A DNA stretch of 64,000 bases from Nitrosopumilaceae archaeon. Lineage in GTDB: Archaea > Thermoproteota > Nitrososphaeria > Nitrososphaerales > Nitrosopumilaceae. Below, in pieces: positions 7,417-59,141 of the stretch. The stretch spans positions 1,696,001 to 1,760,000 of the forward strand of contig OZ242274.1 in assembly GCA_965207375.1 (NCBI GenBank), given 5' to 3'. A model generated the notes under the pieces. It was not told the origin of the DNA and did no database searches. It saw nothing but the letters and a program-made list of their open reading frames with translations. The stretch's first letter is position 1; every line of letters starts with the position of its first letter. The position numbers and the translations under genes were made by a program.

Positions 7417-7535
7417 AATCCTACATCTCGTACCTCTTTATAATTTTGAATATTCTTCAGGCACACACTCAGGTCGCCTCTGATTCTATGTCTATCTTTT
7501 GAACATACCTAAAATTTTCATACTTGAAAAATCTA

Positions 7536-44057: not shown

Positions 44058-44202
44058 TGAACACATGGTAACCACCCCGGCGCAGTACTAGTGGTGGATC
44101 GACCACTGATAATGTGTGGGCTATGCGCCCTGATAGATGTGTGCAGCTTCCGATCCGTCAACAAATCAGTAAGGAGGTGAAAAAAGGATGAAAACATACA
44201 TT
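44058..44202 (+). mobile_element. Relic 5' non-coding region and first codons of a second IS110/IS1111-type element
   Basis: ctgatagatg..tgcagctt.cg...aggaggtgaaaaaag matches 57713-57766; ATG 44188 MKTYI is cut by the MITE at 44203. Confidence 0.65.
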
Positions 44203-44284
44203 GTACTTGTTCACCACCTCATACCTAATTTTTCAATCATTATACCATCTGGACACAAATTGGTTCTATTATGTAAACAAGTAT
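44203..44284. mobile_element. IS66-derived MITE, second diverged copy
   Basis: Aligns to 17727-17808; right TIR gtaaacaagtat; no TSD. Confidence 0.85.
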
Positions 44285-46908: not shown

Positions 46909-47115
46909 TTACAAATTCATCGTATAGAAAGCCGTCTCAGGAAATATCATCTGGATTACAACTGCAATTACACTAAGTGCCAGTCCTAAAAACAAACAGT
47001 TTCTTGCCTTTTGTGGATCATCATGTCGCAAAACAAAGTACGCAATGATACCACCTATGACATTTAAAAATATGGGCAACAAAAACCACCAGTTACTACG
47101 CTGAGCTGACTGCAT
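46909..47115 (-). CDS. Small conserved membrane protein
   Basis: RSNWWFLLPIFLNVIGGIIAYFVLRHDDPQKARNCL. Confidence 0.8.
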   Translation of the reverse strand: MQSAQRSNWWFLLPIFLNVIGGIIAYFVLRHDDPQKARNCLFLGLALSVIAVVIQMIFPETAFYTMNL

Positions 47116-47310
47116 ATTGAACTAGGTACAGAAAGTGCTTATTCCTTTTTTTGTGTATTATTTTTGACTCTTAATTTGATTCAAATCACATGAATTTGCC
47201 AATAGATTTTCAGATATGACAGTTACACGCCTAGCACATGTCAAAAATAACCTAGTTTACATCTAATTCAGGCACAAAACATTTAAAAAAATCTAGATCA
47301 TTATTTACAT

Positions 47311-47336
47311 TGTTTCTAAACTCGAATTTAGAAACA
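47311..47336. promoter_or_regulatory. Palindromic operator-like site
   Basis: tgtttctaaactcgaatttagaaaca, one mismatch from a perfect palindrome. Confidence 0.6.
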
Positions 47337-47452
47337 TCAAAACAGCACAACATGAATCAGATCCCCATTTGCACACGAAGATGTTTTTAATTTATCGTAC
47401 AGGCATCAAATAGAACCTGAGATTAATAAATAAGATAAACATGGTATAAAAA

Positions 47453-48094
47453 ATGAAATATGGAACATGCGTTAAATGCAAGGCTAGAATAACAAAACCT
47501 ACAGCATTAGAGCATCTGCAAAATTGTATACCATTGAATCCCCCAGATACACCACAGAAAAGTTTTGTTTTGCGAATAAATGACAGAGACGTATACAGGT
47601 ATTGGATGTATGTAAAAATATCAGGATCATCTACTCTGTTTGATTTAGATTCCTTTTTGAGAGACCAATGGTTAGAATGTTGCGAACACTTGAGCATGTT
47701 TGATATAAATGAGATCAAATACGAGGATATTGCAAAGTTGGAATGCAATGACTTGGGCAGTGAAGATGTCAAAATAGCAGTAGAAAAGATCCTATACAAA
47801 GGACTAAATTTCAAACATGTCTATGATTTTGGAAACAGTACCACATTAGGATTACAAGTAGTTGGCGAGTATCAGGATGATGCATCTGCCAAAAAACAAA
47901 TCAAACTCTTGGTTAAAAACAACCCGACACGTCACAGATGCAAAATATGTAAAAAAGATGCAGAACTCATATGCAGGGATTGTTATGAAGGAGGATCATC
48001 ATACTTTTGCGAACCCTGTGGTGAAAAACACGAATATCACGAATTACTTTCGGTGGCCAACTCACCTAGGGCAGGCGTGTGCGGATATGGATAA
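47453..48094 (+). CDS. Plasmid pRiA4b ORF3-like (IS1096 passenger TnpR-like) protein with Zn fingers
   Basis: STLFDLDSFLRDQWLECCEHLSMF, HVYDFG and NSPRAGVCGY motifs. Confidence 0.85.
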   Translation: MKYGTCVKCKARITKPTALEHLQNCIPLNPPDTPQKSFVLRINDRDVYRYWMYVKISGSSTLFDLDSFLRDQWLECCEHLSMFDINEIKYEDIAKLECNDLGSEDVKIAVEKILYKGLNFKHVYDFGNSTTLGLQVVGEYQDDASAKKQIKLLVKNNPTRHRCKICKKDAELICRDCYEGGSSYFCEPCGEKHEYHELLSVANSPRAGVCGYG

Positions 48095-48124
48095 AATTTA
48101 CAATGTCACAGAGGATAACAAAAT

Positions 48125-48154
48125 AATATTTCTAAATTCGAATTTAGAAATATT
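48125..48154. promoter_or_regulatory. Perfect 30-bp palindrome, operator-like
   Basis: aatatttctaaattcgaatttagaaatatt. Confidence 0.65.
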
Positions 48155-48318
48155 CTTATAGCATACAAGTGTTTTTTAAACAATGCAATATTTCAAATAA
48201 TATAGGTTCAAACAGGCACTCAATAAAAAAAAGTTAATCAAAATTATCATATAAAAAATCAAACACAAATGATCGCAAAAGAACATATCAAAATAAAAAC
48301 AACTAGTGAATAGTATTA

Positions 48319-49389
48319 TTGTTGAGACATCCAGTAATAACTGAGGATAATTTTTTGCAGCTTCTTTGGGAGTATACCGATCAGATGTACGGTCATCAGA
48401 TAGAAGAATCATACGACATATGTCCATATGATCTAGATTTTGCTGATGAAGAGTTTGTGTACAAGCAAGTATGTACATGGTTTATGTTTGAAAGAAAAGA
48501 CAGATACGGACAGACAGTAGTGGATGAATTTGTAGATAAATTTGTAAGTAATCAGTACCTACGGGCAAAGATCCTACAAACAAAGAACCTCACCTATGAC
48601 ACATTTTACATAGAAAAATCAATAGATGCAGATGGCATAATTCAAGCAAGATCCGAATCGAACGGAAAAGTATTTCGAATCAAGATCATGTCAGGAGGTA
48701 GCATTTATGTAAAAGGCAAAATACTTTCAGGCAGAATATACCCATGGGATGAAGATGGTACATATCGTGCCAATGGAATACTCAAGATTACAAATCCACA
48801 TGACGAAATTCTTGACAAGTTGGATTTTGATCCAAGAGAATGGGAAAAAATATATCAAGAAGAAATAGAATCTGTTGCTGTTACCGTTAAATCAATGTCA
48901 CATACATTGTTGAATAAATTGCCAGCAGTCTGGATATATGACATCTGTGATGCTTTGGGCATACATAATGTACACCTCAAAAAAGACAAGATATTTGCCA
49001 TTTCTAAAAAGCTCACATCCAAAGACGAACTCAACAGAGTCATAGATGGCCTCCCAAAGAAGGAAAAAAGTGCACTTGAGTTTATTCTCAAAAAAAGTGG
49101 CGTTGTAAAACATGCTGAACTTTGTAGACAGATTGGGCCAGATGATACAAAACTATACTGGGATGGAAAATCCTTATCGACAATAGCAAATCTCCGACGA
49201 CGTGGGCTACTAATAGTGGGCAAAATGTTAATCAATAATACAAGATACAAGGTGGCAATCATACCTGTAGACATATTCTATACCATCCACACCACAAAAG
49301 AGATACAAAATATATTAAAATCAGGCAATGCAGAAAAAGTTCCCCCCAATAAATTCAAAATAATTCAAAACAGTAACAGAGTGATGTGA
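48319..49389 (+). CDS. Hypothetical protein, paralog A
   Basis: 356 aa; shares CPYDLDF, W.MFERKD, IYPW and YKVAIIP.DI with 49609-50673. Confidence 0.8.
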   Translation: MLRHPVITEDNFLQLLWEYTDQMYGHQIEESYDICPYDLDFADEEFVYKQVCTWFMFERKDRYGQTVVDEFVDKFVSNQYLRAKILQTKNLTYDTFYIEKSIDADGIIQARSESNGKVFRIKIMSGGSIYVKGKILSGRIYPWDEDGTYRANGILKITNPHDEILDKLDFDPREWEKIYQEEIESVAVTVKSMSHTLLNKLPAVWIYDICDALGIHNVHLKKDKIFAISKKLTSKDELNRVIDGLPKKEKSALEFILKKSGVVKHAELCRQIGPDDTKLYWDGKSLSTIANLRRRGLLIVGKMLINNTRYKVAIIPVDIFYTIHTTKEIQNILKSGNAEKVPPNKFKIIQNSNRVM

Positions 49390-57466: not shown

Positions 57467-57593
57467 TATTGAATGGATCGTTGTGGGATTAATAAAGTAT
57501 GGGGGTTTTTGGGTAGGTACATACTCAGGTCGCCTCTGATTCTATGATATAGTTTTTGAACATACATGATCACTTGTAAATTCTCCGGGGCCG

Positions 57594-57745
57594 TATGGAT
57601 AGTATGGACCGATCCCTTGATTTTCATGACACGCAGAGCCACGTGTTCCGACGAAGTCTTCTACATGAATGGGGCAATCCGAGCTGCGGTGAAAGTGACA
57701 CAGAAATGATGTCTGATAGATGAATGCAGCTTACGGTCTGAACAA
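57594..57745 (+). ncRNA. Putative bridge/seek RNA of the IS1111-type element
   Basis: Stem-internal loop-stem agctgc/gcagct plus gaca/tgtc; loop segments match donor junction and target; homolog at 44100-44160 with compensatory inner stem. Confidence 0.5.
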
Positions 57746-57769
57746 TAAAACAGGAGGTGAAAAAAGAAA

Positions 57770-58823
57770 ACGAGAAAACCAAAGTATATTGGAATAGACA
57801 TTGGCAAGAAGAAATGCTTTGTATGCATAAAGGATTATAGCGGTAAGATACTACGTGAAACATCATATTACAATACGGTATCAGGTGCAACAGAGTTTGT
57901 AAAATCTCTAAAGACAAAACATGTTGCAGTATGTGAATCCACAGGAAACATGTGGACAAAAACATTTGATGTGTTTGAAAAGTACGGCATCAAGATAATT
58001 CTGGCAAACCCGGTTCAAACCAAGGCAATTGCATCTGCACGATACCAAGACAGACAAAATGGATGCTCGAACCCTTGCAGACCTGCCGCGTGCAGATCTG
58101 GTAGCTCAGTGTCACGTACCCGACATGACGATACGTCAACAAAAGGAGGTACTGCGTCGCAGAATAGCACTGGTTCGAGAGCGAGTCGAGGTTTCAAATC
58201 GACTAACATCGTTGCTTGACAGGTATGATTTAGTGTTACCAGCAATAAAACTTTGCGCAAAAAAGAATCTAAAGAAACTAGAGTCTCAGACACTAGAGTC
58301 AGATTACGACCAAAAAATGATGGAACAATCCGTGCGACACATAAGATACCTGACAGATGAAATATCAGATATAGAAAATACCGTCGGAGACATTGCACGA
58401 CACAATCAATACGCAAGACTGATCATGAGTCTGACAGGCTTTGATGCGTTTGGTGCATTACTTGTAGCACTTGAGATAGATGACATTTCACGATTCCGTC
58501 ATCCATCAAAGATTGTATCATGGATGGGACTGTGTCCTACGGTATACCAGTCAGGCAACACAACACGACATGGTAAGATGCGCAGGGATGTAAACTCAAA
58601 TGTAAAGTGAATAATGACTCAGGCAGCAAAGACTGCATCACTTCATGATTCCAGGATGGAACAGATCTATGAAAACAGTCGCAAGTCACATCCGTACGGA
58701 ATAGTAGTATCCAAGGTTGCAAACAAACTTGGCAAGATAATCTGGTTCATGTTACGAGATGATCTGCCGTACAAGCAACGCAAGAATAAACTGTATACGA
58801 CAAAGCTTCTCAAGCTACATTAG
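57770..58823 (+). pseudogene. IS110 DEDD recombinase/transposase, inactivated
   Basis: YIGID, CESTG, KTDKMD, GLCPTVYQSG motifs; ACG in place of ATG after aggaggtga SD, frameshift near 58040, TGA at 58608-58610. Confidence 0.9.
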
Positions 58824-59141
58824 GATGGTATCTGCAGGTGGTGACTCACCTCCTGCCCCGCCACCCACCCAATGATTGCATTAGGATTAGGATGAAACAC
58901 ACTAGCGGATACTAAGCTTGTACAAGGTGATACCATCAGAGTAGTCAGGCACGAACTCTTCCCTAATCTTTATCAATGCACAAATCAAGTCAAGATAGAC
59001 CGAAAGTATTAGGATAGTCCATCCTGCGGCCCCGGAAATTTATATAGATAAAAATTTCATATCTGAAAAATTTACGACCGAAGTTTGTACCATAGAACCT
59101 ACAAAAGAAATAATTTTATGTTAGTATGATAAATTAAAATC

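Follow-up and report, generated by a model that had tools for sequence, protein, structure and literature searches.

A predicted two-loop guide RNA upstream of the recombinase gene in an archaeal insertion-sequence lineage with IS1111-like ends

Can an insertion sequence with the ends of one group of RNA-guided elements carry its guide RNA in the position typical of the other group? The question is raised by a single insertion of the IS110/IS1111 family at 57569-59048 of a 64,000-nucleotide stretch of DNA (the window, numbered from its first letter) from a Nitrosopumilaceae archaeon, GenBank assembly GCA_965207375.1, contig OZ242274.1, positions 1,696,001 to 1,760,000. Recombination directed by bridge or seek RNAs has been characterised only in bacteria, where RNA position, repeat length and guide order define two groups. 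The portion of Durrant et al. 2024 (PMC11208160) used here assigns subterminal repeats of 2-3 bp and an upstream RNA to the IS110 group, and repeats of 7-17 bp and a downstream RNA to the IS1111 group. An earlier note, made from the letters of the window, proposed at this locus an archaeal variant with IS1111 ends and an upstream guide RNA.

The element is placed centrally in a small palindromic miniature inverted-repeat transposable element (MITE), of which the genome (G000, contig C1) holds 23 copies. The MITE is about 90 bp long with ends resembling CATACTCAGGTCGCC...GGCGACCTGAGTTTGTAC, and is the target of the family to which the window copy belongs (family A); examples in the window stand at 7494 (+) and 11434 (-). 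MITE copies that lack the insertion read ...ACATACATG^AAAA(A)TTT or ...AGTTTTTGAACATACATG^AAAA(A)TTT.... The insertion point is xTG in 18 of the 23 copies, followed by AAAATT (nine) or AAAAAT (six). Read directly, the left junction of the window copy is ATG|ATCACTTG... and the right one ...TATAGAT|AAAAATTTC. Elsewhere in the genome, the right termini of two partial family A copies are ...ACATAGATG, so that their right end is ...AAATTTACATAGA followed by TG, with the G of the core retained. A third partial copy, at G000:C1:727741, shows the same left end behind a different flank, ...CTG. Because of the MITE empty sites, the ends of the partial copies and the insertion sites of a sister family (family B, below), the shared core is TG, located at 57567-57568 on the left and at T59049 and 59050 on the right, where the G has changed to A. 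The inferred empty site of the window copy is cataca-TG-aaaattt. Its left target half, ATACA, occupies 57562-57568 (+) together with the core, inside the palindromic MITE of which uninterrupted copies exist; the right core and right target half (AAAATT, 59051-59056) occupy 59049-59056 (+), for which the MITE consensus is TG plus AAAATT.

The left end of the element (57569-57593, +) begins with the extension ATCAC, which makes 7 nt with the core TG, and continues into the subterminal inverted repeat TTGTAAATTCTCCGGGGCCG (57574-57593). The right end (59027-59048, +) consists of the subterminal inverted repeat CGGCCCCGGAAATTTATAT (59027-59045) and a 3-nt extension, AGA (59046-59048). The two repeats are 19-20 bp long with one indel and one mismatch, and the 7/3 arrangement fits if the first repeat position is taken as the mismatch. 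The earlier note had correctly seen subterminal repeats 7 and 3 nt from the ends and no target-site duplication; there is none beyond the core. Its AT core at both junctions and its span of 57568-59049 give way to TG and 57569-59048, since an AT core, or boundaries shifted by one or two bases, is ruled out by the empty sites and partial copies. The empty site that it reconstructed was one base off, and its circle-junction string stands unchanged.

The window copy is the sole full-length copy of family A in the genome. Two MITE copies hold only a 26-nt remnant of the right end in inverse orientation, one of them at C1:1598403, and a related contig of run X4 has a similar right-end remnant in a MITE. 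Apparent joints in related contigs of four runs proved to be paralogous MITE copies and not an empty allele of this locus. Because contigs were the source, a circle junction is not expected among them.

A structured RNA is predicted between the left end and the recombinase gene. Our covariance model, R1, was built from 19 upstream regions (of family B, Cenarchaeum and elements in other metagenome-assembled genomes, MAGs), with the window copy left out; the 19 seed sequences align without gaps across 120 columns. R1 matches the window at 57601-57742 (+) over its full model length, with 75.6 bits and E 1.4e-18 (R1 E-values are rough), and 24 of the 26 model pairs form in the window copy. In this putative bridge/seek RNA, which lies on the plus strand throughout, closing stem P1 (57605-57611 with 57734-57740) holds two arms. 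In the first, P2 (57613-57616 with 57671-57674; CCCC/GGGG in the alignment) encloses internal loop 1, the target loop, and a 4-bp hairpin (57628-57658). The 5' strand of this loop, TTGATTTTCAT (57617-57627), pairs with the core and right flank on their top strand, and its 3' strand (57659-57670) contains CTACATG at 57661-57667, similar to the left flank plus core. A 7-nt linker, CAATCCG (57675-57681), separates the arms. In the second, P4 (57682-57687 with 57726-57731; AGCUGC/GCAGCU in the RNA) encloses internal loop 2, the donor loop, and a second hairpin (57697-57713, with stem GACA/TGTC at 57697-57700/57710-57713). The 5' strand of the donor loop (57688-57696, with GGTGA at 57688-57692) pairs with the left end, and its 3' strand (57714-57725, with ATAGATG at 57716-57722) repeats the right end plus core.

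The structure is strongly conserved and shows compensatory changes. In the seed alignment, 97.4% of cells pair, compared with 86.8% after shuffling and 27-49% with slid partners. Double-sided changes affect 13 of 26 pairs, and 0/500 shuffles attained the score of the real alignment. Among 68 distinct R1 matches, pairing holds in 95.6% of cells and double-sided changes occur at 22 of 26 pairs, in an alignment that was fitted to R1 and is thus biased towards the model. Of 70 loci retrieved for their protein homology (L049-L118), 63 have an R1 match, always upstream of the gene and on its strand, and the other seven are 5'-truncated copies or contig ends. Altogether, the RNA is upstream of the recombinase gene in 79 of 79 loci with an R1 match. 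RNA-bearing relatives come from Nitrosopumilus, Cenarchaeum, Nitrososphaerales and Bathyarchaeia MAGs, and the nearest homologous loci of the window element from Nitrosopumilus, Cenarchaeum and Nitrosopumilaceae MAGs. R1 returned nothing meaningful on seven bacterial relatives (L119-L123, L125, L126).

The loops of these RNAs follow the DNA that they are predicted to read. Element boundaries for this comparison were set from the donor loop and the TG core only, after which loop 1 was compared with the host flank; from 80 matches, 44 distinct pairs per side passed the filters, and 10,000 permutations were made. For the left flank, identity with the 3' strand of loop 1 was scored: an element's own guide agrees at 4.77 of 7 bases, versus 2.14 +/- 0.18 for permuted guides. 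For the right flank, pairing with the 5' strand of loop 1 was scored, and an element's own guide makes 4.82 of 8 Watson-Crick pairs, versus 2.52 +/- 0.19. Each observed value was reached in 0/10,000 permutations. Agreement on the left is found at -7 to -3 (73-95%), with -9 and -8 at chance, and on the right at +1 to +6 (57-77%, or 64-89% with G.U pairs), with +7 and +8 at chance. Because agreement is confined to these positions, the target is about 5 bp, TG and 6 bp, or about 13 bp in all. Natural reprogramming is visible within one genome, where copy B13 has guide TTTGTG and flank TTTGTG, and its sisters have GTCGTG in both places.

The donor loop tracks the element's own ends in the same manner. 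For right ends, loop 2 carries ATAGATG in families A and B and ATAGGTG in Cenarchaeum, each corresponding to its own right end; for left ends, GGTGA in family A and TGTGT in family B correspond to ATCACT and AACACA. In the window copy, the donor guide matches the right end in 5/5 bases (ATAGA+TG versus ATAGA+T(G)), and GGTGA pairs with TCACT (57570-57574) in 4/5 positions plus one G.U.

These observations bear on where guides reside and what the upstream structure is. That the guides lie downstream of the gene, as in classical IS1111 elements, would suit the 225-nt downstream non-coding region of the window copy and the downstream RNAs of characterised IS1111 elements (as far as the cited portions describe them), but exact flank 7-mers occur downstream in only 1/32 elements for each side, versus 18/32 (left) and 9/32 (right) upstream and 2/32 and 0/32 in a coding control, and several lineages have only 57-72 nt downstream, so that this location is rejected on the 7-mer counts as improbable in the extreme. 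It is also very improbable that the upstream structure is a mere 5' leader or regulatory element of the recombinase mRNA whose flank matches arose by chance or hitch-hiking. The structure does stand directly before the ribosome-binding site, and the matches of the window copy are short. However, the 38 distinct left guides and 35 distinct right guides of the test set agree with the flanks of the copy that carries them and not with other copies' flanks, the guide signal is present only in the loop strands, beside the invariant TG, and the flanking sequence belongs to the host (MITEs) and is found uninterrupted as well.

The recombinase gene of the window copy (57770-58823, +) is a pseudogene with a DEDD/RuvC-like N-domain and a Transposase_20 C-domain, as recognised through Pfam, NF033542 and frame comparison. 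Its pieces match PF01548 (DEDD_Tnp_IS110) and PF02371 (Transposase_20), as do intact relatives, and its middle piece scores 129 bits on NF033542, "IS110 family RNA-guided transposase". Three lesions are evident. An ACG at 57770-57772 replaces the ATG start of sister family B, and one extra base near 58043, lacking in a related contig, shifts the frame. An in-frame TGA at 58608-58610 stands where relatives have Trp, and related contigs have G at 58610 (A>G). The motifs GIDIG, CEST, TDKMD and QSG persist in the broken frames, and D8, E61, D100, D103, S266 and G267 are invariant in protein alignment A1. The protein thus has the N-domain of the broad IS110 family and a Transposase_20 domain with the G..P....SG motif, and the element has the structured RNA with loops complementary to target and element ends that also characterises that family. 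Judged by its lesions, the recombinase gene is dead; the window copy is a fossil with an intact predicted RNA gene, a mutated recombinase gene and one mutated core base, and cannot mobilise itself.

Family B, in the same genome, has an intact 363-aa gene in four copies that are 98-100% identical in protein. It shares about 41-48% protein identity with the window copy, and its upstream non-coding DNA is 72% identical to 57666-57816. Its recombinase scores 223.8 bits on NF033542 (cut-off 140) and matches PDB chains of ISCro4 and IS621 with E 1e-15 and 5e-14. A different MITE hosts this element at its end: the flanks are ...GTCGTG and CCTAG..., and where the MITE is uninterrupted it reads GTCGTG^CCTAG, in many copies as GTAAGTGTTTACGTCGTG^CCTAGATTTTGACC. 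Family B has the layout TG|AACAC-ATGATAACCACCCC ... GGGGTGGTTAACAT-AGA|TG: its subterminal inverted repeat measures 13-14 bp, and the extensions are 7 nt on the left (counting the core) and 3 nt on the right, exactly as Siddiquee et al. 2024 (PMC11187229) describe for IS1111 elements. The sequence AACACATG was considered as the family B target and ruled out by these uninterrupted MITE ends.

The target of family B is a second repeat family with the end GTAAGTGTT(T/A)ACGTCGTG, present in the window at, for example, 7536 (+), 9042 (-) and 53589 (+). We found 35 similar ends at three or fewer mismatches, 20 of which terminate in TG. A truncated family-B-like left end is present in the window at 44058-44205 (+), and also at G000:C1:555786-555887, with its RNA reduced to a single loop. 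In the window, R1 gives this collapsed RNA 37 bits over 44091-44159, and the gene ends after 16 nt at a MITE end. The near-identical inner hairpins of loops 1 and 2 (GGGCTAYGCGCCC) seem to have recombined in this copy, with loss of the intervening part.

Several points weigh against assigning a guide function to the upstream RNA. The target-loop matches of the window copy are short and imperfect: CTACA+TG agrees with the flank ATACA+TG in 4/5 bases, and the right guide predicts AAAATC for AAAATT, which is 5/6 plus one G.U. The boundaries used in the covariation test were placed via donor guides, only 44 of 80 matches per side were kept, and copies that are related do not count as independent. 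R1 has no curated model for comparison, because no family in Rfam 15 matches; between 57000 and 59600, the sole match at E up to 10 was to SNORD49, at 16 bits and attributable to chance. A Cenarchaeum copy, L031, has a canonical left end and a right flank that does not match its own guide, and three other Cenarchaeum copies lack 8 nt of the left end.

In those three copies (L021, L037 and L043, in Cenarchaeum MAG OZ242221.1), the left end is missing its first 8 nt (AACACATG). They share flanks that contain the inverted repeats GTCCTACA/TGTAGGAC, and loop 1 still matches these flanks over 8 and 7 nt. They look like a crippled copy that spread passively within another repeat.

From the anatomy, the lesions and empty sites, and the covariation of structure, of guides with flanks and of guides with ends, we conclude that 57569-59048 is very probably a dead copy of an RNA-guided insertion sequence with a DEDD recombinase, whose family has an upstream, two-loop bridge RNA. 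The elements that the earlier note had read from the letters are recovered in this RNA: attttcatg (57620-57628) lies within or next to the 5' strand of the target loop, ctacatga (57661-57668) includes its CTACATG, the stem agctgc/gcagct with gaca/tgtc falls where it had been placed and is conserved in R1, and ggtga and atagatga coincide with the two donor strands. The note had called these matches short, and they are, although they exceed chance in that R1, built without the window copy, finds the region. It had also recognised the recombinase as inactivated. Two tests that it named as able to refute the idea, for conserved structure and for guide-flank covariation across homologues, were both passed: the structure is strongly conserved, and the covariation is strong on both sides.

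In active members of the lineage, a bridge RNA of about 120 nt would be made between the left end and the recombinase gene, with P1 holding two arms that each consist of an internal loop and a small hairpin at its tip. The 3' strand of the target loop repeats five left-flank bases plus TG and would hence pair with the bottom strand; the two strands of the loop together would specify a target of about 13 bp. The donor loop would likewise read the right end (ATAG[A/G]+TG) and left-end bases +2 to +6. By analogy with IS621 and ISEc11, the recombinase, bound to both loops, may synapse the circle junction with the target, and strand exchange at TG would then yield an insertion without duplication. 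We infer transcription of the RNA, its binding by the recombinase, the circular intermediate and the strand-exchange chemistry.

To which group, then, do these elements belong? The available portion of Siddiquee et al. 2024 (PMC11187229) gives IS1111 elements subterminal inverted repeats of 11-13 bp with extensions of 7 nt (left) and 3 nt (right), and seekRNAs whose top-strand complement is 5' of their bottom-strand complement. Like ISEc11, ISKpn4, ISPst6, ISPa11 and IS4321/IS5075 of that group, the archaeal lineage combines a DEDD recombinase and subterminal repeats having 7/3 extensions with the absence of target duplication, and like IS1111 elements it inserts into repeated sequences and has the top-strand guide 5' of the bottom-strand guide. 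Its repeats measure 7-22 bp in 29 distinct elements. The 7/3 extensions, counting the core on the left, are found in 17 of the 29 by a crude ungapped score, and most others fit by eye with more mismatches. Unlike IS1111 elements, the lineage has its RNA upstream, archaeal hosts, and a shorter downstream region without target guides (medians in 26 intact elements: upstream 179 nt, range 159-229; downstream 128 nt, range 14-300). It also differs from many IS1111 orthologues, whose donor guides are described in the cited part of Durrant et al. (PMC11208160) as residing in a multi-loop, in that its donor guides occupy a simple internal loop, as in the IS110 group.

The likenesses to IS621 and ISEc21 are of another kind. 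The RNA is in the left end, upstream of the recombinase; the target loop precedes the donor loop; and each loop reads both strands around a shared 2-nt core. Might the element therefore be an ordinary IS110-group member of the IS621/ISEc21 type that has long inverted repeats by happenstance? The RNA position and the two simple internal loops, target loop first as in IS621, would suit such a view. In addition, NCBIfam and Pfam name only the broad IS110 family, and the best relatives of solved structure are ISCro4 and IS621, with no IS1111-type structure among the matches for comparison. However, IS621 and ISEc21 have the bottom-strand guide first (portions of Durrant et al., PMC11208160, and Siddiquee et al., PMC11187229, respectively). 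The order in the lineage is the opposite and equals that of IS1111 seekRNAs, so that the strand order within each loop is reversed relative to IS621, in which the 5' side pairs with the bottom strand. The subterminal repeats are long rather than of the 2-3 bp cited above for the IS110 group, and the 7/3 terminal extensions follow the IS1111 rule. The end architecture taken as a whole gives a mixed picture: of the IS621-like traits (long left end, short right end, 2-3-bp repeat, RNA in the left end), the RNA placement is shared, whereas neither the repeat nor the right end (median 128 nt) is short. The core is TG instead of the CT of IS621, and, unlike in IS621 and ISEc21, both arms are inside a covarying closing stem. 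We consider membership in the IS110 group unlikely.

In sequence terms, the lineage resembles IS1111 elements in its ends and guide order, and the IS110 group in RNA position and in having two simple loops. An IS1111-type label rests on the predicted guide order and the ends. The proposal of an archaeal variant with IS1111 ends and an upstream guide RNA is borne out by those ends, the guide order and the uniformly upstream RNA. The accompanying statement that IS1111 RNAs are bacterial and downstream is correct for characterised ones, with exceptions in non-coding regions: the cited part of Siddiquee et al. (PMC11187229) mentions IS1111 relatives with such a region upstream (ISMtsp17) or on both sides (ISHvo10, ISAcp5). 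These three resemble the lineage in this respect, in a comparison by described location only. ISHvo10 is presumably haloarchaeal, judging from its name. Plasmid matches carry only the name "IS110 family transposase". The best of them, an element on a Haloarcula plasmid, has 34% protein identity and, by eye only, the same layout and TG core; R1 scores only 11.6 bits there (E 0.26), at the expected position.

The downstream non-coding region (58824-59026, +) has features of its own. In the window copy it holds a degenerate TATA-like word, TTTATC (58969-58974), and ATAGACCGAAA (58995-59005), a complement of the RNA's 3'-terminal part (57731-57741); a homologous block is conserved in relatives. 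Nitrosopumilaceae lineages share the downstream block AGCG.TAGCT(A/T)TAAA, and about 27 nt beyond this block is an 11-nt segment complementary to model positions 109-119, a stretch that takes in three bases outside the local P1. Of 33 elements, 19 have a TATA-like word at a distance of 78-95 nt from the right end (84-87 nt in 18, 80 nt in one); these are all the matches in the last 200 nt and make up 19 of the 33 matches in whole elements, in one 10-nt bin. Such downstream features are common to the stretches L020, L031, L036, L049, L050, L053, L057, L064, L074 and L103. The TATA-like box and complementary segment hint at a transcript that crosses the circle junction.

In this reading, the working RNA would span the circle junction: an outward archaeal promoter downstream would initiate an RNA at the segment complementary to the bridge RNA's 3' end, giving a longer, alternative P1, the RNA would be complete only when made from the excised circle, and the subterminal repeats would form an RNA hairpin that has the core as part of its loop. 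This idea extends the conclusion reached above rather than opposing it. It is consistent with the placement of the conserved block before the complementary segment and with the positioned TATA-like motif. The RNA 3' end matches its own downstream partner at 8.92 of 11 positions versus 7.81 +/- 0.15 for permuted partners (reached in 0/5,000), and both sides change at 109, 112, 115 and 117. When the right end is joined to the left end, sequences from 7/7 lineages fold with this long-range helix and a long end-to-end hairpin whose loop contains the core. Complementarity between the element ends extends over about 38 nt, where non-Watson-Crick positions are of the G.U type in 75 cases and of the A.C type in 27. 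This excess is expected for a plus-strand RNA and not for a DNA repeat, and it points to selection on such an RNA, although the copies share ancestry and such a count is no probability.

Other observations temper this idea. The local 5' strand of P1 covaries equally well, which makes an RNA from the integrated copy equally plausible, and the same long-range pairing would arise in a full-length read-through transcript. Conservation of the segment makes for a high permuted baseline in the complementarity test. With the regular expression used, no TATA motif is seen in the Nitrososphaerales lineages, and the archaeal TATA consensus behind it is an assumed one. The G.U excess is carried by related copies, with about 11 lineages favouring G.U, two favouring A.C and four tied. 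We therefore hold a junction-spanning RNA to be possible but doubtful. The broader proposal that the lineage represents a third bridge-recombinase architecture, with an RNA gene straddling the ends, the promoter and one strand of the closing helix on the right and the guide loops on the left, seems rather improbable to us. If true, the junction would be presented by an RNA hairpin formed from the long subterminal repeats, the defining mark of IS1111 elements; the full guide RNA would not exist before excision, and its production would thereby be tied to the circular donor. The lineage would then be a living intermediate of the step, proposed in the part of Durrant et al. (PMC11208160) used here, in which the RNA moved between the ends and which separates IS110 from IS1111.

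The same genome holds at least three further IS110-family lineages, with 25-31% identity to family B, long upstream regions and long inverted repeats of their own (G000:C1:1769300-1771300, 2084300-2086300, 1528300-1530100, 355500-357500 and 47000-48900). R1 gave zero matches at E up to 1 on these five loci, so different RNAs should be expected there. The genome, whose SSU rRNA scores 1445 bits on the archaeal model and marks it as archaeal, measures 4.3 Mb, far more than its family relatives with mostly 1-2 Mb, and all its IS110-family matches are on contig C1. A 2026 survey, in the portion available, reports the highest archaeal insertion-sequence load in a Nitrosopumilus MAG. Two short contigs with bacterial labels, L088 (Gemmatimonadales) and L075 (Kaiserbacteria), carry Nitrososphaerales-type copies with 43-44% identity to family B; the RNA of L088 scores 48.5 bits. 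Mis-binning seems likelier than transfer for both.

The lineage is mainly one of Nitrosopumilaceae, with relatives in Nitrososphaerales, Bathyarchaeia, Methanosarcinales and a Haloarcula plasmid. We found no paper on bridge RNAs of Nitrosopumilaceae or of other archaeal IS110/IS1111 elements; a 2026 preprint (10.64898/2026.10.21.760802), which in its available portion describes large-scale mining of bridge-RNA clusters, may include the family. We regard the lineage as a so-far uncharacterised archaeal variant of bridge-RNA-guided insertion sequences.

Because this archaeal lineage mixes traits that separate the two bacterial groups, RNA position, element ends and guide order must be separable, and the lineage is a natural system for asking how the RNA changed ends. 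It also offers target loops reprogrammed by nature, at least 35 of them, together with the insertion sites that they match, in a compact RNA of about 120 nt, and the intact family B, with four near-identical copies in the same genome, makes the predictions directly testable. For annotation, guidance by the RNA would explain the precise location of such elements inside MITEs in these archaeal genomes.

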